A program made the position numbers and the translations under genes. DNA of 64,000 nt. It comes from Escherichia coli. GTDB lineage: Bacteria; Pseudomonadota; Gammaproteobacteria; Enterobacterales; Enterobacteriaceae. This document shows positions 1,565-61,207 of the stretch, piece by piece. The stretch lies in NCBI RefSeq assembly GCF_003991155.1, contig NZ_CP031293.1. The stretch is one strand, 5' to 3'. Each line of letters begins with the position of its first letter. Within the stretch, counting starts at the first letter, position 1. The notes under the pieces are model-generated. The model did not search any database and was not told the origin of the DNA. It was given only the letters and a program-made list of their open reading frames with translations.

Positions 1565-4889
<3,325 letters not shown>

Positions 4890-43001: not shown

Positions 43002-43613
43002 CTATTTTTGTTTATATAAATCGTAGGAACTTAATTTTTTAGATTTCTCATAGGCATTTTCAATGTATAAAGATACATCTGCTAAAAATCGGTCTTCTTC
43101 TATCAATGAAATATAAGAACCAGTCAATTGATCATATGATTTGCACTCAGGGCAACAATATTTATCTTCTGAAGTTAAATTAAACCTATTATTATTAATA
43201 ATGTCATATAGTTCAGTTGTGTCAATAGTTCTTGATGAACATCCATCAGGCTTGATTGAAGAAGATACTAACCAGTCATAGCTATTATTAACCTTCATTA
43301 TCACACCAACAATGCCATTAGTTCGGGAAGTGGTTCCTCCTCTCTTGTATTCTTTCAATGCATATTCAATTTCCCAGTCAATCCATTTACTTTTAATCAT
43401 ATTCGGGGAAATAATAACGATTAAAACAGATGTCCCGAAAATCATATTTTTAAGATTGTTCTTTATATTATCTACTGTTGTATTACTTATATCAGGAGAC
43501 TCCGATGTTTCCCCTTTATAGTAAACAGCATCATCACCTAATGCCTTGACAATTTTGTCTCTTAAATCCTGTGCTTCACTATATTTATATGATATGAATG
43601 TTTCATGAGCCAT
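43002..43613 (-). CDS. thsB: Thoeris ThsB, TIR-domain protein (203 aa)
   Basis: N-terminal FISYKYSEA... TIR-like beginning, about 200 aa, immediately downstream of SIR2-SLOG gene. Confidence 0.75.
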   Translation of the reverse strand: MAHETFISYKYSEAQDLRDKIVKALGDDAVYYKGETSESPDISNTTVDNIKNNLKNMIFGTSVLIVIISPNMIKSKWIDWEIEYALKEYKRGGTTSRTNGIVGVIMKVNNSYDWLVSSSIKPDGCSSRTIDTTELYDIINNNRFNLTSEDKYCCPECKSYDQLTGSYISLIEEDRFLADVSLYIENAYEKSKKLSSYDLYKQK

Positions 43614-43629
43614 AACTTCACCTAATATA

Positions 43630-45066
43630 TTATTTATTCAGTTTGTTTATGATTTTTATTACAACTTCTATTGTTTTTTTTACCGAAAAATCTTTTTCAG
43701 TAAGCTCAGACAAATCATTATATATCCATTCATTACTTCCATAATATTTCTTAGGATCTTGTGATATTTGTTCAAATATATATTTAGACATATACCCGGT
43801 ATTGGGTAAAGGAATTGGTACAAGGCCATGTTGAACAGCAATCTCAAACTCTCTAAATACTCCCCTAGCATTTACTATATCATTATTTTCCTCTTGTTTA
43901 TTTCCAAAAATAAACAATGCAATACCACCAAGAGGAATCATTCTCTGTCTATACTCCTCCCAAAGTTCTTGAATATCTTTCCCCTTACTGACAGTTTGTG
44001 GAAATGGTCTAACAATGAGCTGTTCTTCTGATAATTTATCTGGCCTACTATAAATTGCATCCAACGCACCATTTATCACAGAACTTCCGACGCCCCATCC
44101 AAATCCATTCACTATCCTATAATTATTCTTTATAATCTCATATGCTAATGTGTGAATAAAATCTAATGCTTTAGGTCTTTCAAGATCCCCATATTTTTCT
44201 GCACTACCAGAAATAAATATCGTTTTCTTTTTAAATGATTGCTCTATCTTAGCTAGAATTTTAGGGATGTCAGAATATTCATCTATTAATAATACTTGTA
44301 TACCAAATCTCTTGAGATCATCGATTCGCAGTTTTTGTTTTCTGATCTTATAATTTACTGTTTCTTCATCATCTAGGGAATTATTAGCCTCATTCTTCAT
44401 AAAGCAATAGTGTGTCCTCTTGTCCCCAGAATGAGTATACAAACGACTCAAAATGTAATCCAGATTTGGGTCGGTAAAACTAAACCCTATGAATAGAAAG
44501 GTTTTTGATATTAAATCTCCGCTAAGTGCGGTGATAAATGAAGCGTGTGTTCTGTAGTATTTTTCATACTGCTCTTTATATAAAATAGCCTTGGATGGGG
44601 ACGAAATATCACCATGCATTTTATATACTATCGCGTCTCGCTTAGGTCGTGTTGTATTTAAATCATCTATGTTTCTTTTTACATCTGCAATTTTGTAAAC
44701 TTTCCGCAGACTATCTTCAATTAAAGTGTCATAGTTTGTTGTCCAAAATGTCTTAATCGGTAAACGAGCAATTATATTATGAACCTCTGATGGCTCGGCT
44801 TGCTCAGAAAACTCTTCGATTATCTTCCTTGTGAGTTTTGTAGCCCCTTTCTTTTCATTAACATGAAATTGAGCAAGCGATATTAGATCGTCTTCTTTAT
44901 TAATGTCTAAACTAAGCTCTTCTGCTATATCGCTAAGTAATTCTTTCCAATCAACATAACCTTGACTTTTAGACATTCCTGCGCCAGAAAAAATAGCAGC
45001 ACAATCATTTTCAAGATCTTTAACAAAATCTTTTATGAAAACTTCAATTTCATTACTAAACGTCAT
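43630..45066 (-). CDS. thsA: Thoeris ThsA, SIR2-SLOG NADase effector (478 aa)
   Basis: N-terminal SIR2-like motifs (FSGAGMS, TTNYD, MHGD) and C-terminal SLOG-like glycine-rich region (FISGSAEKYG...GFGWGVGSSVINGALD); start set at MTFSNEIEV with GGAG RBS. Confidence 0.8.
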   Translation of the reverse strand: MTFSNEIEVFIKDFVKDLENDCAAIFSGAGMSKSQGYVDWKELLSDIAEELSLDINKEDDLISLAQFHVNEKKGATKLTRKIIEEFSEQAEPSEVHNIIARLPIKTFWTTNYDTLIEDSLRKVYKIADVKRNIDDLNTTRPKRDAIVYKMHGDISSPSKAILYKEQYEKYYRTHASFITALSGDLISKTFLFIGFSFTDPNLDYILSRLYTHSGDKRTHYCFMKNEANNSLDDEETVNYKIRKQKLRIDDLKRFGIQVLLIDEYSDIPKILAKIEQSFKKKTIFISGSAEKYGDLERPKALDFIHTLAYEIIKNNYRIVNGFGWGVGSSVINGALDAIYSRPDKLSEEQLIVRPFPQTVSKGKDIQELWEEYRQRMIPLGGIALFIFGNKQEENNDIVNARGVFREFEIAVQHGLVPIPLPNTGYMSKYIFEQISQDPKKYYGSNEWIYNDLSELTEKDFSVKKTIEVVIKIINKLNK

Positions 45067-48022: not shown

Positions 48023-48568
48023 ATGTTAGATAATAAAATAAAAAAATCAAGAAGAGGTCTACCTCGCCATGTAAAAAACCCATTCCTTAATGATACAAAT
48101 ATACATACAAAAACAGGTATCAGACGTATCACAACAGGAAAAGATCGCTTAGCCGTAGTAAATGAAAATACAGGAGAACAGGTTGGGCATGGTGGTTTCT
48201 TTCAGTCAATGGAAGTAGACAAGACACAGTTCGTGAAGCTTTATGTGGATGGCGTATCAGCTATTGAGGGTTTATCCTCATCCGGTAAGAAAGTATTTAA
48301 GATACTGTATCTTGCTATTAGAGACAATAAAGATACAGATACGATATTAATGTCATTCGATATTGTTGATCAAGAGATTGTAAAAATATCAAGAACGACA
48401 TATTTCAAAGGGATGAAAGAACTTGCTGACAAGAAATTTATTGCTGAGACCATGATACAGAACTATTATTTTATTAATCCAGACTATATGTTTAATGGTG
48501 ATCGTTTAACTTTCATGAAAACTTATTACTTGAAGGGTAAAAAGAAAACAGCGAATAATAAAAATTAA
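48023..48568 (+). CDS. Hypothetical protein, possible winged-helix DNA-binding / replication-initiator-like protein (181 aa)
   Basis: RBS GGGGAAAG upstream; basic N-terminus and a central segment that reads like a wHTH; weak call. Confidence 0.45.
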   Translation: MLDNKIKKSRRGLPRHVKNPFLNDTNIHTKTGIRRITTGKDRLAVVNENTGEQVGHGGFFQSMEVDKTQFVKLYVDGVSAIEGLSSSGKKVFKILYLAIRDNKDTDTILMSFDIVDQEIVKISRTTYFKGMKELADKKFIAETMIQNYYFINPDYMFNGDRLTFMKTYYLKGKKKTANNKN

Positions 48569-48722
48569 TTACCAACGGGAAAACAGGTTAAAAAATCGCC
48601 GTAATAAACTACGATTACATTAAAGGTATTTTCTTGCCAAGAGAGAAACATCACCAATTTGACACCTGAACCATATCTCGTAATATAAATATATCAACCA
48701 TTTTATTTACGAGGTATTTCTT

Positions 48723-49202
48723 ATGAGAAAAGTAAAAACAGACAACAGTGATTTAATCGAATACGTAAATACAGTTAAAGAACTAAAAAATCACATTCCA
48801 ATAGAAGAATACAGAAATGAATATCGTAAACTGCGTTCCGATGATATTCCATTGGTTAAAGCTCAGAAATTTAAATCTGCCCATACCGAACTTCGCAGAC
48901 TTGAAAAAAAGAGAGAGTCTCTTATTGAATACTTTATTGACGAGTTAAATCCCATCAGCAGTTCAAAAGCTAACACATCAGCGAGATCAACTAGTAATCT
49001 CGATTTATTTAACGAACGCGTGTTATACCGTAAGGCTATTTCAGAAAAGAGTGATGAAGAAATAGTAGCCTTGGTCATAAAACAACGCACAGAAGCCGCT
49101 GTTGAGTTCCAACGTTCAATTGAACATAGTCTTGAGCAACTATCTCGTATCTCGTCAGAGTTCGAACCAGCAAGCCAAAAGCGCAGGAAAATGTCTCTTT
49201 AA
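48723..49202 (+). CDS. Hypothetical coiled-coil protein (159 aa)
   Basis: ORF with charged, helical-looking sequence. Confidence 0.45.
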   Translation: MRKVKTDNSDLIEYVNTVKELKNHIPIEEYRNEYRKLRSDDIPLVKAQKFKSAHTELRRLEKKRESLIEYFIDELNPISSSKANTSARSTSNLDLFNERVLYRKAISEKSDEEIVALVIKQRTEAAVEFQRSIEHSLEQLSRISSEFEPASQKRRKMSL

Positions 49203-49359
49203 AACGACTCTATGCTATTCGTGTGAAATGTGATGTATTAGATTGCTTATGCAATAATGTTTACTATATTATTTACTGACTGTTTTTTTTGATTTTTCCA
49301 ACAGCACCGTAAGCATTATTTTTATTAATCGCCTATTTTAAAACACCGGATGACATACT

Positions 49360-49764
49360 ATGAGTGAAGCTCTCAAGGCACTGAACAATATTCGTACACT
49401 TCGCGCACATGCTCGTGAAACAGATCTGACAACTCTGGAAGAGATGCTGGAAAAGCTCTCTGCTGTCGTTGAAGATCGCCGTGAGGAAGAAAATTCAGCC
49501 CGTAAAGAACAAGAAGAACGTCAGGCTAAACTGGAAGCCTTCCGCCAGAAATTGTTAGAAGACGGTATCGATCCTACAGAACTACTCGCTGCTGTTAGTT
49601 CATCCCAGCCTAAAGCCAAATCAACTCGTGCTCCTCGTCCTGCTAAATACAAATATACAGATGAAAACGGTAATGAGCAGACTTGGACGGGTCAGGGCCG
49701 TACTCCTAAAGCAATCGCCGCTGCTATCGAAGCTGGTAAGACACTGGAAGACTTTGCAATCTAA
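49360..49764 (+). CDS. H-NS-family nucleoid-associated protein (horizontally acquired paralog, Hfp/Hns2-like; 134 aa)
   Basis: [33 protein letters not shown]...[13 protein letters not shown] closely parallels H-NS N-terminal dimerisation and C-terminal DNA-binding motif. Confidence 0.88.
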
Positions 49765-49827
49765 CCGCTACAGCATATCCGGGCTTCACTGTTCTCAAGA
49801 TAACAGGCCCGGAAAATATTCGATTTT

Positions 49828-50208
49828 TCATCCAAGGCTATCCCAGTCTGGCAGGTTGTTAACGACCTTTCGCCACCAATGATACGCAGCCATAAGAACA
49901 CCAAAACAAATACCTGCGACGACGCTTGAGACAAATGCAGTGCCCGGTTGTATCCCTGTATCCTTCCAAGTAAAAAACCACATACAGATCCCCCATGCCG
50001 GACCAAACCATCCACCCATCAACAAAGTGATTTGCCAGAATGAGGCAAAAGGTAGCGGTGGTATCTTGAGTCCAGCTTTCCATGCGAGGTGTAGCAAAGG
50101 AGGGGCATAATTACTTCGCCACATCTTCTTGCTTTCCATGATGGCAATAGCGTGTTTCTTTTTAGCTTCAAAGCCCATACGGTTCCCTCCAGCTCCACCT
50201 TTACTCAT
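49828..50208 (-). CDS. Hypothetical small membrane protein (126 aa)
   Basis: Hydrophobic, Trp-rich segments (WQITLLMGGWFGPAWGICMWFF). Confidence 0.45.
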   Translation of the reverse strand: MSKGGAGGNRMGFEAKKKHAIAIMESKKMWRSNYAPPLLHLAWKAGLKIPPLPFASFWQITLLMGGWFGPAWGICMWFFTWKDTGIQPGTAFVSSVVAGICFGVLMAAYHWWRKVVNNLPDWDSLG

Positions 50209-50282
50209 CTATCGATAAAAAGCCACAATAGACAATAATGATTATCAATTCCATGTATGTAAGTCAAAAATAACTCAAATAG

Positions 50283-50525
50283 TCATTCCTTTAGATCTTC
50301 TGGCGAAACCCGGTCACATGCCATTTTCTCAAGCATTCTTTGTAATCTTTTCATTTTCAACTTACGCGCTTTTTTCTCACCAATCTCCTGATAGTATTCT
50401 TCACGACGTTCGTTGACCACGCTCCTGAAATTTTTCAAAAGCTGTTCAAGTGTTTTGATGTCAGTAGTTGCGGCTTCCGCTTGGATTTTTTTATACATAT
50501 ACATCACATGAAATTCATCGATCAT
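50283..50525 (-). CDS. Truncated H-NS-like protein (H-NST-like, 80 aa; dimerisation domain only)
   Basis: TLEQLLKNFRSVVNERREEYYQEIGEKKARKL resembles the H-NS N-terminal oligomerisation helix and lacks any DNA-binding domain. Confidence 0.65.
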   Translation of the reverse strand: MIDEFHVMYMYKKIQAEAATTDIKTLEQLLKNFRSVVNERREEYYQEIGEKKARKLKMKRLQRMLEKMACDRVSPEDLKE

Positions 50526-50598
50526 TTTTTAGCTCCTTGAATAGACAAATAATATTTGTTATCAGCCCCAAGAAGGGGCCGATAGACACCAGAACATA

Positions 50599-50955
50599 TC
50601 AACATATTGATTCCGCCAGAACCGTATAATGCATTTTGGCTAATGCCTGCTTAACCCCCTTAAAATCCACCTCAGATAGTTTTTCAGCCGCGTTCTTTTT
50701 CCATGCTTTTTTCAGAAGATGTTTCTCCGCATTTCTCATCGCCAGATCGATTAGCCTACAGACAAACTCATGATCCATTACATGCGTTATAATCATATTA
50801 CTGGTCGTTTTATCCTTTGAGTTAAAAAGCTCCGCGTAGATATGCAAGGACACAACATAAAAGATTTCAGTATTTTTATTTTTAAATGTATTCATTGGCT
50901 TTTCCTTTTGGTTAATATTAAAAATGAAATGCTGTAGCATTAGCGGTATACACAC
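50599..50955 (-). CDS. Hypothetical protein
   Basis: ORF, start uncertain (possible Met21). Confidence 0.4.
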   Translation of the reverse strand: MCIPLMLQHFIFNINQKEKPMNTFKNKNTEIFYVVSLHIYAELFNSKDKTTSNMIITHVMDHEFVCRLIDLAMRNAEKHLLKKAWKKNAAEKLSEVDFKGVKQALAKMHYTVLAESIC

Positions 50956-51242
50956 TTATAGACAATCCAAAGCTGACGAAGGTGTTGTTTTACCTTACTG
51001 TGGCTTACTTCTCCATAAATCCGATTCCTTTGGTCTTCTTCTGTGTCATCATAAAAATGATATCTCGTTTTTTTAATGATACTTTCCATAATGTCATTCA
51101 TATTGTATTTATTGTTGAGAAAATAATAAAAATCATCTGGTGCATTCCTCTGCAATTCGTCCATATAGTTCCTAAAATAACATTCGGCTTGTTCAATAAA
51201 CTGTTTTGTCGTAATAAGTTCTATCTTCATATTCTTCTCCAT
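50940..51242 (-). CDS. Hypothetical protein (100 aa)
   Basis: ORF co-oriented with alpA-like gene. Confidence 0.4.
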   Translation of the reverse strand: MEKNMKIELITTKQFIEQAECYFRNYMDELQRNAPDDFYYFLNNKYNMNDIMESIIKKTRYHFYDDTEEDQRNRIYGEVSHSKVKQHLRQLWIVYKCVYR

Positions 51243-51311
51243 TATTATTTAGGATAATAAAATGCCCTGTGCGAACAGTTATCTGTTCGACACGAGATCT
51301 TGTTTCTGTTT

Positions 51312-51530
51312 TTATGCAGCGTTCTGGCGTGAGTTTCGAATAGTCGTTTCAATCCATTCATCAATCTCACTTTCAACAAAAGCAACACACCTCGGACCTA
51401 TTTTTACTCTGTCAGGAAAGTTTCCTTCCTTAATACGCTCATATAAAGTCGTGCGACTGAATCCCACTCGATTTAAAACATCAGGAACGCGGATAAATCG
51501 TTTTACGCTGGTTTCAATATTTTCTTTCAT
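51312..51530 (-). CDS. alpA: AlpA-family phage/island transcriptional regulator (excisionase-like HTH), about 72 aa
   Basis: KRFIRVPDVLNRVGFSRTTLYERIKEGNFPDRVKIGPRCVAFVESEIDEWI matches the AlpA/MerR-like HTH pattern; start trimmed to MKENIET. Confidence 0.75.
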   Translation of the reverse strand: MKENIETSVKRFIRVPDVLNRVGFSRTTLYERIKEGNFPDRVKIGPRCVAFVESEIDEWIETTIRNSRQNAA

Positions 51531-51745
51531 TGTCTGTCCTCTATTATTGTAAGTAATCTCTATGAGATTTCGCTTTTCTCTATGTTGTTTCGACGTGAAC
51601 AATGATAGCGATTTTGCTTATGGTAATTTAGGGACGTTCAAAGAAGTTTTTTTTGAAAAATTCGAAGGGGCACGGATGGAAAGATAACGGTTAACACTGG
51701 ATGAGATCACGTTCGCTCGGAGCGAACGTAACCCTTTTACTTGGC

Positions 51746-52639
51746 TTATTTTTTCTTATTCCTGTCGTCTTCTACATGCTTTTCAACAGGGGAGTCTTTC
51801 AAGTGGTTGTTTTCCATCATGTAATCTTCAAGCGATTTCAGATAGCTCGCATCCGTCAGAAAAGCCATTGCTAACGGGTAGTCCGTTGCCTTTAGCATTC
51901 CTTCATCACGATCGTTGTCGCTGTCCTCGTGAAGCAGCGAAGAAATCAGTGAAAGCGGGATTTTAATGCCGTTATCTTCTCCCCAGAAGATCAGGTCCAT
52001 CATCGGGATAAGACGATATTCAATGATTTTTCTGAATGTGCTTTTGCCGAAACGATACTCTCTTGGCGCTGGAGACTTCATCTTAAGCTGTCTCTTCCAT
52101 TGAGGGATCAGCACTTTCAGATGTTCAATGATTTCTTCAGTTGATGCCTCTTCCAGATGAATATCGACAGTAATGCGTGAAAGATTATTAAGGGATGTTT
52201 CTTTTAGATACTCGGACAGAAATTCGGATTCGCTTAACGCGGAAAGCTCAGGCGTGGCTTCGGTTAATGCCAGCGTTTTCGCATAAAATTGCGCGTGGCT
52301 TCGTGTCGTAGGATTTACCGCGTAGGTTCTGGCAAGCTCATGTCCAAGGGTAGCGGTATCACCACTGAAAAAGATTTCACCGCTGAGGATCTTGTTGCGG
52401 TAATCATCCAGCATTAATCGGTTAAAGGTAGGTATGGTGTTCCGGCTCAACAACATTCTGTAAGCCAAGATACGCCGCTCAACCTCAACATAAAACTGCT
52501 GTAAGGTGAGTTTCTCTATCGCCTCATATCGTTCCACATCAAACCATGCTTCCAGTGCTTTCCTGATTTCACTTCTTTTCATCCATCCTCCAACAATCCA
52601 TTTCCTTTGATATATCTTCACAGGATCCGTTTGGAACAA
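51746..52639 (-). CDS. Hypothetical protein (297 aa) adjacent to serU
   Basis: ORF with RBS; no family recognised. Confidence 0.5.
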   Translation of the reverse strand: MFQTDPVKIYQRKWIVGGWMKRSEIRKALEAWFDVERYEAIEKLTLQQFYVEVERRILAYRMLLSRNTIPTFNRLMLDDYRNKILSGEIFFSGDTATLGHELARTYAVNPTTRSHAQFYAKTLALTEATPELSALSESEFLSEYLKETSLNNLSRITVDIHLEEASTEEIIEHLKVLIPQWKRQLKMKSPAPREYRFGKSTFRKIIEYRLIPMMDLIFWGEDNGIKIPLSLISSLLHEDSDNDRDEGMLKATDYPLAMAFLTDASYLKSLEDYMMENNHLKDSPVEKHVEDDRNKKK

Positions 52640-52860
52640 TTGAAGTTCAACTGTTTTGTCATCAGAGACGGGGGAATGGCTAAGTTGTTGTTAAGAGTGT
52701 GAACTCGAGAGCATAAAAGTGGATGCCCGACGCGCGGCAAAATGGTAAAAAACAGCATCAGTAGTAAGAAAAATTGAGCGAGAGAAAGGAATTTTAATGC
52801 AGGGATTTATGCATGACAAAATCAAAAATACTTTGTAAGTGATTGATTTTGTTGAATGAT

Positions 52861-52950
52861 TGGCGGAGAGAGGGGGATTTGAACCCCCGGTAGAGTTGCC
52901 CCTACTCCGGTTTTCGAGACCGGTCCGTTCAGCCGCTCCGGCATCTCTCC
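52861..52950 (-). tRNA. serU: tRNA-Ser (anticodon CGA)
   Basis: Reverse complement GGAGAGATGCCGGAGCGGCTGAACGGACCGGTCTCGAAAACCGG...GGTTCAAATCCCCCTCTCTCCGCCA has long variable arm and CGA anticodon. Confidence 0.92.
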
Positions 52951-53941: not shown

Positions 53942-54017
53942 TCCTCTGTAGTTCAGTCGGTAGAACGGCGGACTGTTAATCCGTATGTCACTGGTTCGAG
54001 TCCAGTCAGAGGAGCCA
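53942..54017 (+). tRNA. asnT: tRNA-Asn (anticodon GTT)
   Basis: TCCTCTGTAGTTCAGTCGGTAGAACGGCGGACTGTTAATCCGTATGTCACTGGTTCGAGTCCAGTCAGAGGAGCCA, 76 nt. Confidence 0.93.
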
Positions 54018-54183
54018 AATTTTAGTCTTGAGACATCTCTATAAGTCTCAGGATAGTTAAAAAACAAGAACTTATCTTTACCCGGTTGTCTCGCAAGAGG
54101 CTGCTGGGTTTCTTGACATCCATAGTTTTTAGGGGCCTAATCAGGGGCCTCACGGTTCGGTGAGCAAACGGAGCCCCCACGCT

Positions 54184-55446
54184 ATGGCATTAACAGACAC
54201 CGCTATTCGCAAGACTAAACCCTCTGACAAACCCTTCAAAATGACGGACAGTTCTGGACTGTACCTGTTGATCAAACCTAACGGCTCAAAACTCTGGTAT
54301 ATGAAGTACCGCATCGACGGCAAAGAGAAGAAACTGGCCTTTGGCCCCTACCCGGAGATCTCCCTGTTGCAGGCTCGCCGCCTGCGCGAAACAGCACGCA
54401 ATAACATTCATGCAGGCGTCGATCCGGCTGCGGTGAAGCAAACCGAGAAACAGAAGAGGAAAAACGGGCAGACGTTCAGCCAGATCGCCATCAACTGGCA
54501 TAGCGAGCATAAACGCTGGTCTGAGCATTACGCGAAAACGGTTATGCGCAGGCTGGAAATGTACGTTTTCCCGGATATCGGGGATCGCCTTATCGAGGAG
54601 ATCGAAACGGAGGATTTGTTATTCACGTTGCGCAAGGTAGAGAGTAAAGGCTTTCTGGAAATCACCGCGCGGCTGAAAAACTACGTCACCGATATCATGC
54701 ACTACGCGATGAAAAAGAAACTGCTCAAAGCGAACCCGGCGCTGTATCTGGACGGTGAGTTTGCCGCGCCAGAAACCAGTCACTACCCGGCCCTGTCGCT
54801 GGATAAGTTGCCTGAGCTTTTATCCCGGACAGAGAATTACTGCGGCAGGCTGCTGACGAAATACGCCCTCAAACTTTCGCTGCTGTTTTTCGTGCGCTCC
54901 AGCGAGCTACGTTTTGCCCGCTGGAGTGAAATCGACTGGCAGCAAAAACTGTGGGTGATCCCGGAAGAACGCGAGCAGATCGAAAACGTGCGCTTCTCTT
55001 ACCGGGGGGCGAAAATGAAAATCCAGCACATTGTGCCGCTGTCGGATCAGGCGATTGCGATACTGAAGCAGATCGAGGCCCTCTCCGGGCATCTGGCCTT
55101 TATTTTTCCCGGCGAATACGACCAGAACAAGTGCATGAGCGACAACACCGTCAACAAGGCGCTGCGCGTGATGGGTTACGACACCAAAAAGGATATCTGC
55201 GGGCATGGCTTCCGGGCAATGGCCTGTAGTGCGCTGAGCGAATCGGGATTATGGAGCAAAGAAGCCATTGAAAAGCAGATGAGCCACCAGGAAAGAAACA
55301 GCGTCCGTGCTGCCTATATTCACAAGGCTGAATATCTGGAGGAACGGATCGAGATGATGCAGTGGTGGTCAGATTATCTTGATGCAAACAGTGACGGGTA
55401 TGTCTCGGCTTACCAGTATGCCCGCCGCCTAAAACAGGCGTCGTAA
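54184..55446 (+). CDS. P4-like tyrosine integrase of asnT-associated island
   Basis: MALTDTAIRKTKPSDKPFKMTDSSGLYLLIKPNGSKLWYMKYR N-terminus typical of P4-family integrases; directly downstream of the tRNA 3' end. Confidence 0.9.
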   Translation: MALTDTAIRKTKPSDKPFKMTDSSGLYLLIKPNGSKLWYMKYRIDGKEKKLAFGPYPEISLLQARRLRETARNNIHAGVDPAAVKQTEKQKRKNGQTFSQIAINWHSEHKRWSEHYAKTVMRRLEMYVFPDIGDRLIEEIETEDLLFTLRKVESKGFLEITARLKNYVTDIMHYAMKKKLLKANPALYLDGEFAAPETSHYPALSLDKLPELLSRTENYCGRLLTKYALKLSLLFFVRSSELRFARWSEIDWQQKLWVIPEEREQIENVRFSYRGAKMKIQHIVPLSDQAIAILKQIEALSGHLAFIFPGEYDQNKCMSDNTVNKALRVMGYDTKKDICGHGFRAMACSALSESGLWSKEAIEKQMSHQERNSVRAAYIHKAEYLEERIEMMQWWSDYLDANSDGYVSAYQYARRLKQAS

Positions 55447-55569
55447 GTTAACAAAGCATCAGAGGGGGAAAAGGTATATTCCCCCTTTGTGCGTTTCAAA
55501 TGTCGATGCTGACTGTAGCTTTTAAACTAAATTACTGGATAAAAAGTAGCTTTTAAGCTACTATCTTTT

Positions 55570-55743
55570 ATGAAAACGATAAAGACCTACATAACTGCCG
55601 ACGGGCGAGATCTGTATGCAGAGTTTTTTAAAGGGTTACGCAACCCCATCGCGAAGGCAACGATCGCTTCCCGGATCAACCGGATGGCTTCGGACAATTT
55701 TGGCGACCATAAGCCCTGCCGGGAAGGTGTCTGGGAACTGTAG
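55570..55743 (+). pseudogene. Addiction-module killer-type toxin gene (RelE/ParE superfamily), 3'-truncated by IS insertion
   Basis: MKTIKTYITADGRDLYAEFFKGLRNPIAKATIASRINRMASDNFGDHKPCREGVWEL then stop inside the IS left end. Confidence 0.6.
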
Positions 55744-55746
55744 TGG

Positions 55747-57709
<1,963 letters not shown>

Positions 57710-57988
57710 ATCTCGTTCTCCTTCATAACATTCCAGATTCCAGAGGTACTTCGTGCTGCTATAACGTACCCGACAACCGGAACACCGGGACAGACAATGG
57801 ATGCGGTATTCGGTTATAAAACGGTATATATTTAAATAGTGAACACCATGAGCGTAATATATTTATTTGATGAATGTATTGATGAAAGGAAAATTGCTTT
57901 TTAGCTATTATCGGCGGGTGTATAATTTAGTCCGTTTTTTTCAAATAAATAATCGCAAATAGCATCTGATGCCACTGAGGACGCAGGT

Positions 57989-58780
57989 ATGAATTTCAGA
58001 CCAGCAGTATATTTATGTGCAGCAACATTTTTACTGGCTGGCTGTGCGCCACGCTCCCCCATTGATGCGAAGAAAACGGGCGCATCCGCCAAAGAGAGCA
58101 GCATCAGCAAAAACACAACGGCACAACTGACCGATAAAGATATTTTTGGCAATGAAACCACGCTGGCAGTTTCTGAGGAAGATATTCAGGCAGCACTGGA
58201 AGGCGAAGCGTTCCGCGTGCCGCTGAATTCACCCGTGATTCTGGTTCAATCCGGTAGCCGCGCACCGGAGGCCATGATGCAGCAGGAAATGAGTAAATAT
58301 TATACCGTTGCCACATTCTCCGGTATCCCGGACAGACAAAAACCTGTGACCTGTAACAAAGACAAAAACAAAGATAAAAGCGAGAACCAGGATGTTGCTG
58401 TTGTTGAGAATATGAACTGGATGCAGGCACTGCGTTTTGTGGCTGCAAAAGGACATCAGAAATCGATTATTGTTTACCAGGATACGTTGCAGACAGGAAA
58501 ATATGACTCTGCGCTGAAATCAACAGTGTGGTCAGATTATAAAAATCAAAAACTAACTGACACAATGTCATTACGTTTTTTGGTTCGCTTCACTCTGGTG
58601 GATGTGGCAACTGGCGAGTGGGCTACCTGGTCACCTGTAAATTATGAGTCCAGAGTTATCTTCCCTCAGACTGAAAAAAAGGGTGCAATCACTACCGATG
58701 TGACAGAGCAACAAATCACCCAGCTTAAGCAGAAAACATACGCAGCAATGACCAGGGATCTGGTGAACCGCTATCAGTAA
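57989..58780 (+). CDS. Lipoprotein (263 aa)
   Basis: Signal/lipobox FLLAGCAP; Lys/Asp-rich central region. Confidence 0.6.
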
Positions 58781-58988
58781 GCAACATCCCCCTTACCTGC
58801 CGCTAATAAATAGTGGCGGCAGGCACTGGCACGAAAAACTCCCTGATGCTGACGATTATTAAACATCTTTCTGGTATTTTCTGTTGCAAACCATCCCATT
58901 CATAGCATATCAGTATCCATCATTTTAAATTTACAGTGATTGTATGCCTCAAAGCTAATCGCTTCCGATGATGGTGCCCGCAATAAAT

Positions 58989-59288
58989 TTAATCGGAATC
59001 GTCTTCTGTATCCTCCTCATATGAATCCCTGACGGTCCCCAGTTTTGTATTGCCATTGGCAGGCGTCCCATCTCCCATCAGAACGTCGATGTCATAGCCA
59101 GGATATTGTTTCTTTATATTGCGTTTGAACTCTGAGACCGTCGAATCATTTTTGGACATTTTCACCCGCTGATATTGTGGCATATCTTTTTTATCACCCC
59201 GGACGTCCTTACCATCGGGTGTTTTGAAGCGAACATCAAATCCCTGTACATCCCAGATTTTCTTTTCAACATTTTTTACTAATGGCAT
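58989..59288 (-). CDS. Hypothetical small protein (99 aa) downstream of hcp
   Basis: ORF with acidic C-terminal tail. Confidence 0.45.
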   Translation of the reverse strand: MPLVKNVEKKIWDVQGFDVRFKTPDGKDVRGDKKDMPQYQRVKMSKNDSTVSEFKRNIKKQYPGYDIDVLMGDGTPANGNTKLGTVRDSYEEDTEDDSD

Positions 59289-59340
59289 TTTTATTCTCTC
59301 TTCAGAAAATTACACTAAATCAAAAAAAGTATCGCTATTC

Positions 59341-59820
59341 TTAATAGAGTCTCTCTTCCCATAAGCTATATGCACTGGTTCCTGCAACACAGTGCTCCTG
59401 AGTAATACTTTCATAGGTGAATGATATGGCCTCTTCTGGTTGTCCCTGGCTATTGTTGACAGTGTGCGGCACAATATGCTTTATGCTGGCAATGCGGGCG
59501 TTAATCAGCTTCACTTTGAAATACAGCTCGTTAATACCAAAACGGTTGGTGCGGTAATACTCAAAATCACAGGTCAGACACTCATTTTCGCTGATAGCCT
59601 TACTCAACAAAGGGGAAGATTTATCCACGGGTTTCTGAATAATGAGCGCTTGATGATTCACGTTTTGTGCACGGGTTAATCCGTGGCTGAGTCCCAGCAC
59701 CATGATCTGATCCATATGCGCAATCTGCGCTTTGTTCCCAATAGATGCCAGTGATGAACAGCCTGCGGAGATCAGCCCCTGGAGATCGCCGTTCAGTGTC
59801 AGGTAAACAGGATTTGCCAT
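59341..59820 (-). CDS. hcp: Type VI secretion system tube protein Hcp (159 aa)
   Basis: MANPVYLTLNGDLQG...KPVDKSSPLL...ISFTYESITQEH pattern characteristic of the Hcp family. Confidence 0.8.
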   Translation of the reverse strand: MANPVYLTLNGDLQGLISAGCSSLASIGNKAQIAHMDQIMVLGLSHGLTRAQNVNHQALIIQKPVDKSSPLLSKAISENECLTCDFEYYRTNRFGINELYFKVKLINARIASIKHIVPHTVNNSQGQPEEAISFTYESITQEHCVAGTSAYSLWEERLY

Positions 59821-59841
59821 ATTAAGCTCCTTGGTCCGGGG

Positions 59842-61197
59842 TTATTTCCCGACCCCTTTATCAATAATTGCCGTTTCCGGTAGAGAGTGATTTTTCAGCA
59901 ACAACCAGCGACTTAACACGCCGTCCAGCCGCTCGTTAATCTGTTTTTCCAGTACGTCGGTATTCTGCCCCTGCGCACGGGCGTCCTGGTACTGCGTCAG
60001 CAGCGACTCAACGGGTGTTTCCTGCCCCAGCCCCCGCTCCGCCTGCCAGATAACATTTTTGATGTAGGAAAGGGTTACCCCCTCTTTCTCACGTTTCATC
60101 ACGAGGTCTGCAAAGGCATGTAAGTCCTGGCGGGCCTGTAACCAGCCGCGTAACTGTGGACTACTCTGCGCACGAGTTTTCAGCGTCTCATTCCACTGTG
60201 CGGTGGCCTGCTGCTGTTGCAGACTCTCCGGCCAGCGGCTGTCGGCGGTACGCGCCATCTGTAAGCCCGTATTCAGCGGCTGAACAGGTGAAGCATCAAG
60301 GAGTTGCTGTAGCCTGCGCTCATAGTTTTCCAGCTCAGGCGACACAAGCCAGACTGTCGCAGCGCCCTGCGCGGTATCGCTGACCTGGGTGAGTTGTTGC
60401 TGCATGGGAGAGACCAGCCACCACCAGAGAGCGGCGGCAACAGCCCCGGAGCAGAGAACACCCGCGATAAAACCTTTCACCGCACTGCCCTGCTTTGCCA
60501 CACTGGTCGGTGGCGTACTGTCAGCCAGGCTGCGCACCTCCACCTTCATCTCCGGCAGTTCAGGCAGCGGCGGCATCACCGTTTCGGTTGCTGGCGTAAT
60601 ACCGTTTTCCGGGGCATAAATCAGCGTTCTGACCGTGGTCTGTGCGGTGTGTTCAACGCTGCTTTTCGGCTGCGGCTCAAGTCGTTTACGCGTGTTCTGA
60701 ACAAAATAAAGCAGGTTTTCCACGCGCGGCTGGCGCTTCAGTTCCACCTGCTGGAGCTTGTCACAGATAAGCTGTAGTGCCCGTTCCGTGCGATATAACA
60801 GAGGCAGGTCAGCCTCCACAAAGGATATCTGCTGGCGCAGGATATTCCCGGTGCGGGTGTTGAACCAGTCCAGCATCTCGGTCCGCGCCGGGCCGCCCTG
60901 CGGCCAGAAGTTATCCCACTCGTGAGTGACCATCGCCGCCAGCAATTCCGCCCCTTCGCAGAATCCCGCCAGCCCCTGTGTCCGGGTCCGGGCCAGCGTG
61001 TAGTAGGTGGCGGTATGCAAATCCACCCCGTTGGCCTTAAATATCGCCAGCGCCAGCGACTCCACCAGTTTCCAGTTCAGCTCCGGCTGCGACGGGTGGC
61101 TGGCCTTGTTGATTTCCTCGCGGATGGCGCTGAACTCTGGCAGGCCACGCGGGTCACTGCCGGTAACGATAGTTTGTGTCAGTACGTTATTGCTCAT
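59842..61197 (-). CDS. Type VI secretion TssA/VasL-family protein (ImpA N-terminal domain with internal TM segment)
   Basis: N-terminal ImpA-like region (DPRGLPEFSAIREEINK...NWKLV...LLAAMVTHEWDNFWPQ), hydrophobic segment FIAGVLCSGAVAAALWWWLV; start set at MSNNVLTQ with GAGGAG RBS just after tssM stop. Confidence 0.7.
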   Translation of the reverse strand: MSNNVLTQTIVTGSDPRGLPEFSAIREEINKASHPSQPELNWKLVESLALAIFKANGVDLHTATYYTLARTRTQGLAGFCEGAELLAAMVTHEWDNFWPQGGPARTEMLDWFNTRTGNILRQQISFVEADLPLLYRTERALQLICDKLQQVELKRQPRVENLLYFVQNTRKRLEPQPKSSVEHTAQTTVRTLIYAPENGITPATETVMPPLPELPEMKVEVRSLADSTPPTSVAKQGSAVKGFIAGVLCSGAVAAALWWWLVSPMQQQLTQVSDTAQGAATVWLVSPELENYERRLQQLLDASPVQPLNTGLQMARTADSRWPESLQQQQATAQWNETLKTRAQSSPQLRGWLQARQDLHAFADLVMKREKEGVTLSYIKNVIWQAERGLGQETPVESLLTQYQDARAQGQNTDVLEKQINERLDGVLSRWLLLKNHSLPETAIIDKGVGK

Positions 61198-61207
61198 CCC
61201 TGTCTCC

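Follow-up and report, generated by a model that had tools for sequence, protein, structure and literature searches.

A probable Hfp/H-NST silencer and anti-silencer pair in an Escherichia coli serU genomic island

The DNA analysed here, referred to as the window, is a 64,000-nucleotide stretch of Escherichia coli contig NZ_CP031293.1. Our analysis shows that it encodes a full-length H-NS paralogue and a truncated H-NS protein which together are very probably the hfp (hnsB)/hnsT silencer and anti-silencer module of the serU genomic island of E. coli. What we established directly is how similar the sequences are, which domains they contain, the island setting and the allele; for the protein interactions and their effect on silencing we draw on published work with near-identical proteins. 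The hfp/hnsT pair, its convergent layout, the dominant-negative action of H-NST and the Hfp-H-NS heteromers are already known, having been described by Williamson & Free 2005 (as reported in PMC3897749 and PMC7074111), Müller 2010, Levine 2014 and Piña-Iturbe 2018/2020. The reference loci used for comparison were the serU island of UPEC 536, island IE3 of EPEC E2348/69, and hns and stpA of K-12. The features of the pair and of its immediate surroundings are as follows.

49360-49764, plus strand: hfp (hnsB), full-length 134-aa H-NS paralogue (ORF list, Pfam, identity to 536 Hfp)
49778-49813, no strand assigned: GC-rich hairpin between the hfp and DUF6404 stop codons (folding energy -16.9 kcal/mol; z -2.86 relative to shuffled sequence)
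49828-50178, minus strand: DUF6404 family gene in the gap between hfp and hnsT, sharing the hnsT strand and lying downstream of that gene (annotated in RefSeq for an identical genome; phrog_31022, E 6.8e-41)
50283-50525, minus strand: hnsT, 80-aa truncated H-NS (H-NST) with the N-terminal oligomerisation domain only, Ala16 allele (ORF list, Pfam)
50533-50538, minus strand: Shine-Dalgarno sequence AAGGAG, 7 nt before the hnsT ATG (read from the sequence)
50599-51230, minus strand: two small conserved genes upstream of hnsT, at 50599-50895 and 50940-51230 (RefSeq; phrog_19730, phrog_38005)

An earlier note on this DNA had claimed a full-length H-NS family protein of 134 aa, and this was confirmed at 49360-49764 on the plus strand. 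The protein has both Pfam H-NS domains, Histone_HNS_N (PF22470, E 2.4e-24) and the C-terminal Histone_HNS (PF00816, E 7.3e-17), and thus belongs to the same two-domain family as K-12 H-NS and StpA. It is matched by the NCBIfam models for H-NS (E 3.6e-52) and StpA (E 2.4e-49), with scores under the cut-offs of both equivalogs, namely 175.9 bits against 211 for H-NS (NF008193) and 166.9 bits against 202 for StpA (NF007656). Hence the protein is a third paralogue, neither hns nor stpA. We considered that the gene might be the chromosomal hns or stpA and ruled this out on these scores, on its island location and on its 94% identity (8 substitutions) to Hfp/H-NSB of UPEC 536; identity to the K-12 proteins is 62% for H-NS and 55% for StpA. 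The substitutions relative to 536 Hfp are at residues 17, 24, 34-36, 78, 80 and 86, and none of the eight falls inside the TWTGQGRTP motif, which is present in the window protein. The 94% identity together with the shared flanking genes of the serU island identifies the window gene as orthologous to 536 Hfp (ECP_1927), and Hfp of 536 and of CFT073 has the same length, the same two domains and the same position and orientation within the serU island. As judged from its sequence, the window Hfp carries every feature of a functional silencer.

The 134-aa Hfp of 536 is encoded on a 23-kb island of 38% GC that is flanked by serU-associated direct repeats; K-12 lacks Hfp, which was gained by horizontal transfer (PMC2814080). 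Published work on 536 Hfp has found that it forms heteromers with H-NS, that hfp is repressed by H-NS, and that Hfp complements hns phenotypes, with Hfp phenotypes seen mainly when hns is deleted as well (PMC2814080).

The 80-aa protein has a single Pfam match, to Histone_HNS_N (PF22470, residues 1-79, E 2.6e-11). The Pfam search gave no match to the C-terminal domain PF00816, the TWTGQGRTP motif is absent, and the alignment to H-NS stops at the equivalent of H-NS residue 77. The NCBIfam H-NS model matches positions 5-75 (E 8.3e-7), and the solved H-NS 1-83 chain 3NR7 is matched over H-NS residues 9-78 (E 6.7e-6). Alignment to H-NS N-terminal domains, which the earlier note had set as a check on this protein, is thus found with Pfam, NCBIfam and 3NR7 alike. 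The protein had been described as resembling the H-NS oligomerisation helix only; it is indeed restricted to the N-terminal part, though it corresponds to the whole domain (H-NS 1-77) and not to a single helix. Residues 1-55 align with H-NS 1-55, including Ala16 in both proteins, Ala18, Leu26, Leu30 and the RREE motif, and after a 3-residue insertion residues 59-80 align with H-NS 56-77, including Asp68, Pro72 and Leu75 of H-NS. Identity to the N-terminal domains of H-NS, StpA and Hfp is 27-33%. Over all 80 residues it rises to 96% for H-NST of 536 (3 substitutions) and 91% for H-NST of EPEC E2348/69 (7 substitutions, 5 of them between residues 50 and 80).

An AF2 model of H-NST (mean pLDDT 85) has helices at residues 2-18 and 23-70 and a 3-residue helical stub at 75-77 after Pro75, a layout which we take to be that of helices 1-3 and only the start of helix 4 in the H-NS 1-83 structure (3NR7). 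A Foldseek search of the PDB with this model gave no match at E ≤ 0.001 and did not recover 3NR7, the two-helix model being too featureless for Foldseek, and our argument on the fold uses sequence profiles and secondary structure only. An N-terminal domain of about 80 aa, the lack of a linker and of a DNA-binding domain, the identity to the founding members, Ala16 and the location in an island of the P4-integrase type at serU, which with asnW is one of the two sites expected for an H-NST island, together place the protein among the H-NSTs. The UPEC (CFT073 and 536) and EPEC H-NSTs resemble it in being 80 aa long, in having the N-terminal H-NS domain only and in belonging to the same island family. 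Neither the 134-aa nor the 80-aa ORF arises by chance, and RefSeq already labels both products as H-NS family proteins. The proposed pairing of an island H-NS paralogue with an H-NST-type antagonist therefore stands, since both are near-identical alleles of the defining proteins (94% for Hfp; 96% and 91% for H-NST) in the same serU setting.

The two genes converge, and 518 bp separate their stop codons. The earlier note had placed a convergent 80-aa gene about 500 bp from hfp, and its coordinates and orientation were exact; what it missed is that the gap holds the DUF6404 gene and the hairpin. The DUF6404 gene occupies the same position in UPEC 536. The hairpin at 49778-49813 is probably a transcription terminator that would part the two convergent units. 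A promoter and terminator consensus scan found no sigma-70 consensus promoter immediately before either hfp or hnsT, and the region has no excess of promoter-like sites (5, where shuffled sequence gives an expectation of 8.8). The order of the two small genes upstream of hnsT is kept in 536 and in EPEC IE3. Just upstream of hfp and on its strand are a RepL-like replication/maintenance gene (48023-48568, plus strand) and a DUF4756 gene (48723-49202, plus strand). PADLOC gave no defence-system match for DUF6404, DUF4756 or RepL.

The pair lies in an AT-rich island of about 22 kb at the tRNA-Ser gene serU, spanning about 30925-52874, with a GC content of 30-44% against about 50% outside. Its borders and the island features that we refer to below are as follows.

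30925-30938, no strand assigned: left 14-bp direct repeat, TGGCGGAGAGAGGG (exact repeat search)
31103-32323, plus strand: tyrosine integrase at the island start (annotation)
43002-43613, minus strand: ThsB (TIR) (PADLOC, E 2.6e-85)
43630-45066, minus strand: ThsA (SIR2 and STALD-type domain) (PADLOC, E 8e-203)
51312-51530, minus strand: AlpA-type HTH excisionase/regulator, the recombination directionality factor (RDF) of the island (PHROG excisionase families, E ~2e-12)
51746-52582, minus strand: DUF6387 gene, conserved RDF companion (annotation, PHROG search; PMC6035254)
52861-52950, minus strand: tRNA-Ser (CGA) serU, the integration site; the last 14 nt at its 3' end are the right-hand copy of the direct repeat, at 52861 (ARAGORN, repeat search)

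Across the window the order is yedK, fliE-fliR, rcsA, dsrB, zinT, the island of about 22 kb, serU, mtfA, asnT and a second island. The window is chromosomal and all but identical to E. coli strain AR Bank #0349: the initial 31 kb align without a mismatch and the final 34.8 kb with 3. The RepL-like and DUF4756 genes, together with the MobQ relaxase, TraD and PilV/type IV pilin genes of the island, point to a mobilisable, plasmid-like ancestry. ThsB and ThsA form a type I Thoeris anti-phage system in a cargo slot of the island (43002-45066, minus strand). The second island, at the tRNA-Asn gene asnT (53942-64000 of the window), holds an integrase, a RelE/ParE fragment and an IS3 element followed by type VI secretion genes of 58-60% GC (Hcp, VasL, TssM, TssA, VasI, TssH); in UPEC 536 the asnT site is occupied by the yersiniabactin HPI. 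A short integrase pseudogene fragment at about 869-1018, between yedK and fliE (RefSeq, identical genome), has a similar counterpart in E2348/69 and may be the scar of an earlier insertion.

The gene order of the 536 island is that of the window: DUF4756, hfp, DUF6404, hnsT, the two small genes, the AlpA-type HTH gene (RDF), DUF6387 and serU. Nucleotide identity to 536 is 96% over 48656-52900 and 84-97% across the remaining backbone, and the cargo segments differ. The 536 island lacks the Thoeris pair ThsA/ThsB of the window; its TIR cargo consists of the virulence gene tcpC together with one further TIR gene and one macro-domain gene, and lies in a different variable segment. The two small genes, the AlpA-type RDF and DUF6387 are neighbours of hnsT in both EPEC and UPEC, and integration at serU is shared with the UPEC H-NST. 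IE3 of EPEC has been reported to encode H-NST (PMC7074111), and we find its hnsT in the same module without a full-length paralogue. Hence the full-length paralogue is a variable part of the module, and hnsT with the RDF genes is the conserved part. In IE3 the places of DUF6404 and hfp after hnsT are taken by an 80-aa hypothetical gene of another kind and by a PIN-domain gene (3681-4215 of the IE3 locus).

Further counterparts are the EARL (ROD21-like) islands of Enterobacteriaceae, of which the serU island has been described as a related derivative (PMC7074111). EARL islands likewise encode H-NS homologues of 132-134 aa and 78-90 aa in opposite directions, and among the 33 related EARL islands with a full-length homologue, 14 were reported to pair it convergently with a short one (PMC6035254). 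Further likenesses are low GC content, a relaxase, type IV pilus genes and an RDF accompanied by a gene of about 840 bp (PMC6035254). The EARL islands differ in using another integrase and in integrating at Asn-tRNA sites.

This arrangement bears on the possibility that the pair primarily regulates the island itself, that is its excision, its transfer and cargo such as Thoeris, with Hfp silencing the AT-rich island after transfer and H-NST lifting the silencing. The position of hnsT in the attachment-site-proximal module, on the same strand as the excisionase gene, is consistent with such a role, as are the conservation of this RDF-proximal module in 536 and EPEC IE3 while the cargo varies, the low GC content of the island, and reviews that have proposed a 'stealth' role of this kind (PMC6035254, PMC7074111). 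However, effects of H-NST and Hfp are documented for genes outside the island, which makes an island-only role too narrow (PMC7074111, PMC2814080), and IE3 carries hnsT in the absence of hfp. We therefore regard a primary role in regulating the island as possible though somewhat doubtful.

The mechanism that we favour for the silencer and anti-silencer pair extends from the published behaviour of its close relatives. Hfp would use its C-terminal domain to bind AT-rich DNA and its N-terminal domain to co-oligomerise with chromosomal H-NS, and would so act as an auxiliary silencer. H-NST appears to keep dimerisation site 1 (helices 1-3, with Ala16, Leu26 and Leu30). It has neither a linker nor a DNA-binding domain, and helix 4 seems to be cut short at its C-terminal end, which would leave site 2 (the end of helix 3 plus helix 4) incomplete. 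By analogy with its counterparts it would join H-NS and probably also Hfp and StpA. A complex containing H-NST would then hold a subunit that is unable to prolong the head-to-head/tail-to-tail filament or to contact DNA in the usual way. Silencing would consequently be weakened, which is the dominant-negative behaviour found in published experiments on H-NST. H-NST of EPEC is known to derepress proU and bgl via heteromers with H-NS (PMC3897749; PMC7074111). A functional analogy may be drawn to phage T7 gp5.5 and other H-NS-binding anti-silencers, in which a small protein attaches to the oligomerisation region of H-NS and so lifts silencing (PMC3897749). These proteins are not homologous to H-NST, which is itself an H-NS N-terminal domain.

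Arg60 and Arg63 may in addition give H-NST some weak DNA binding, to which these two residues have been found to contribute (PMC3897749). Levine et al. observed that H-NST shifts LEE1 and LEE3 DNA in EMSA and that the R60Q and R63Q mutants bind worse and act less (PMC3897749). Since the window H-NST has both arginines within a Lys/Arg-rich stretch at 51-63, it is conceivable that H-NST mainly binds DNA through Arg60, Arg63 and its basic C-terminal third, and helps other anti-silencers to displace H-NS/Hfp at particular promoters instead of poisoning H-NS oligomers. We consider this improbable. Pfam finds no recognisable DNA-binding domain in H-NST, and A16 mutants that lose oligomerisation lose DNA binding too, so that the two activities are not separable (PMC3897749). 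Furthermore, there are no LEE genes among the annotated features of the window, and the known DNA targets are therefore not at hand.

Whether H-NST poisons H-NS oligomers in this way would depend on its allele. The A16V change abolishes the activity of EPEC H-NST, and UPEC H-NST, with Val16, is non-functional (PMC3897749). Codon 16 is GCG (Ala) in the window and GTG (Val) in 536. The window protein shares Ala16, Leu30, Arg60 and Arg63 with the active EPEC H-NST; Arg54 is likewise the EPEC residue, against His54 in 536, and Asn32 is private to the window allele, position 32 being Lys in EPEC H-NST, 536 H-NST and H-NS. Because it carries Ala16 and not the Val16 of the inactive UPEC allele, the window H-NST is predicted to be an active antagonist.

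The alternative is that the 80-aa gene is an inert relic like the Val16 H-NST of UPEC CFT073 and 536, which would leave Hfp, a spare silencer, as the one component of consequence. Such a reading could appeal to the overall identity of the protein, which is higher with the 536 allele, reported as inactive, than with the active one of EPEC, to the private Asn32 and to the result of the consensus scan, in which no promoter was detected for hnsT. Yet the active residue, Ala, stands at position 16, the one position demonstrated to determine whether H-NST works; Arg54 also agrees with EPEC, and the hnsT ORF is intact and preceded by a strong AAGGAG ribosome-binding site. Its distribution also speaks against a relic. 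The exact window H-NST protein occurs on at least 1000 contigs, and among 5426 complete E. coli genomes the window (Ala16) haplotype was counted in 167, the 536/Nissle 1917 (Val16) haplotype in 169 and the EPEC haplotype in 14, so that the window allele cannot be called rare. The counts come from megablast with 55-nt queries that have the variant base at their centre, where a mismatch prevents seeding. Each is a lower bound, since seeding is equally lost through a further mismatch close to codon 16. Collectively these observations make an inert H-NST unlikely.

The full 1.5-kb module was found at ≥80% coverage in 276 genomes. We had also considered the size of the protein cluster (1491 members at the 90% identity level) as a measure of prevalence, and dropped it when unrelated 98-aa proteins proved to be mixed in. 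The 98-aa contaminants are encoded by the next gene upstream of hnsT (50599-50895, minus strand); the mixing looks like a clustering artefact, with fused gene calls perhaps its cause.

The Ala16/Val16 polymorphism predicts, from sequence, that about half of the Hfp-carrying serU islands encode an active anti-silencer. We raise as a tentative proposal, which may well not hold, that the serU island exists in two about equally common states, one with Hfp and an inactive Val16 H-NST (CFT073, 536 and Nissle 1917) and one with Hfp and a predicted active Ala16 H-NST (the window), a single codon switching between 'silencer only' and 'silencer plus anti-silencer'.

The earlier note had further linked the pair to host genes of the window, rcsA and the flagellar regulon among them, and this part is unsupported. 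In all E. coli that we examined serU adjoins fliE-R and rcsA. This holds even for E2348/69, where no island occupies serU, and the proximity of rcsA and the fli genes is therefore incidental. With respect to the flagellar link, the hfp single mutant of UPEC 536 is as motile as the wild type (PMC2814080, Table 2). Any effect of the pair on rcsA or the fli genes would be a general trans effect via H-NS.

The reading made from sequence had thus correctly recognised a known regulatory module, to which it added little that is new. The pair was described in 2005-2010 and is the founding example of an island H-NS paralogue accompanied by a truncated antagonist; such paralogues and antagonists are an established route by which mobile DNA tunes xenogeneic silencing. 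In the literature examined we found no experiments on the combination of an active Ala16 H-NST with Hfp at serU. If the proposed codon-16 switch is real, it could alter the expression of island cargo, Thoeris here and TcpC elsewhere, and of the host H-NS regulon. Strains with the island variant described here probably carry an active H-NST, unlike CFT073 and 536, and regulatory conclusions drawn from those two strains may therefore not transfer to them.
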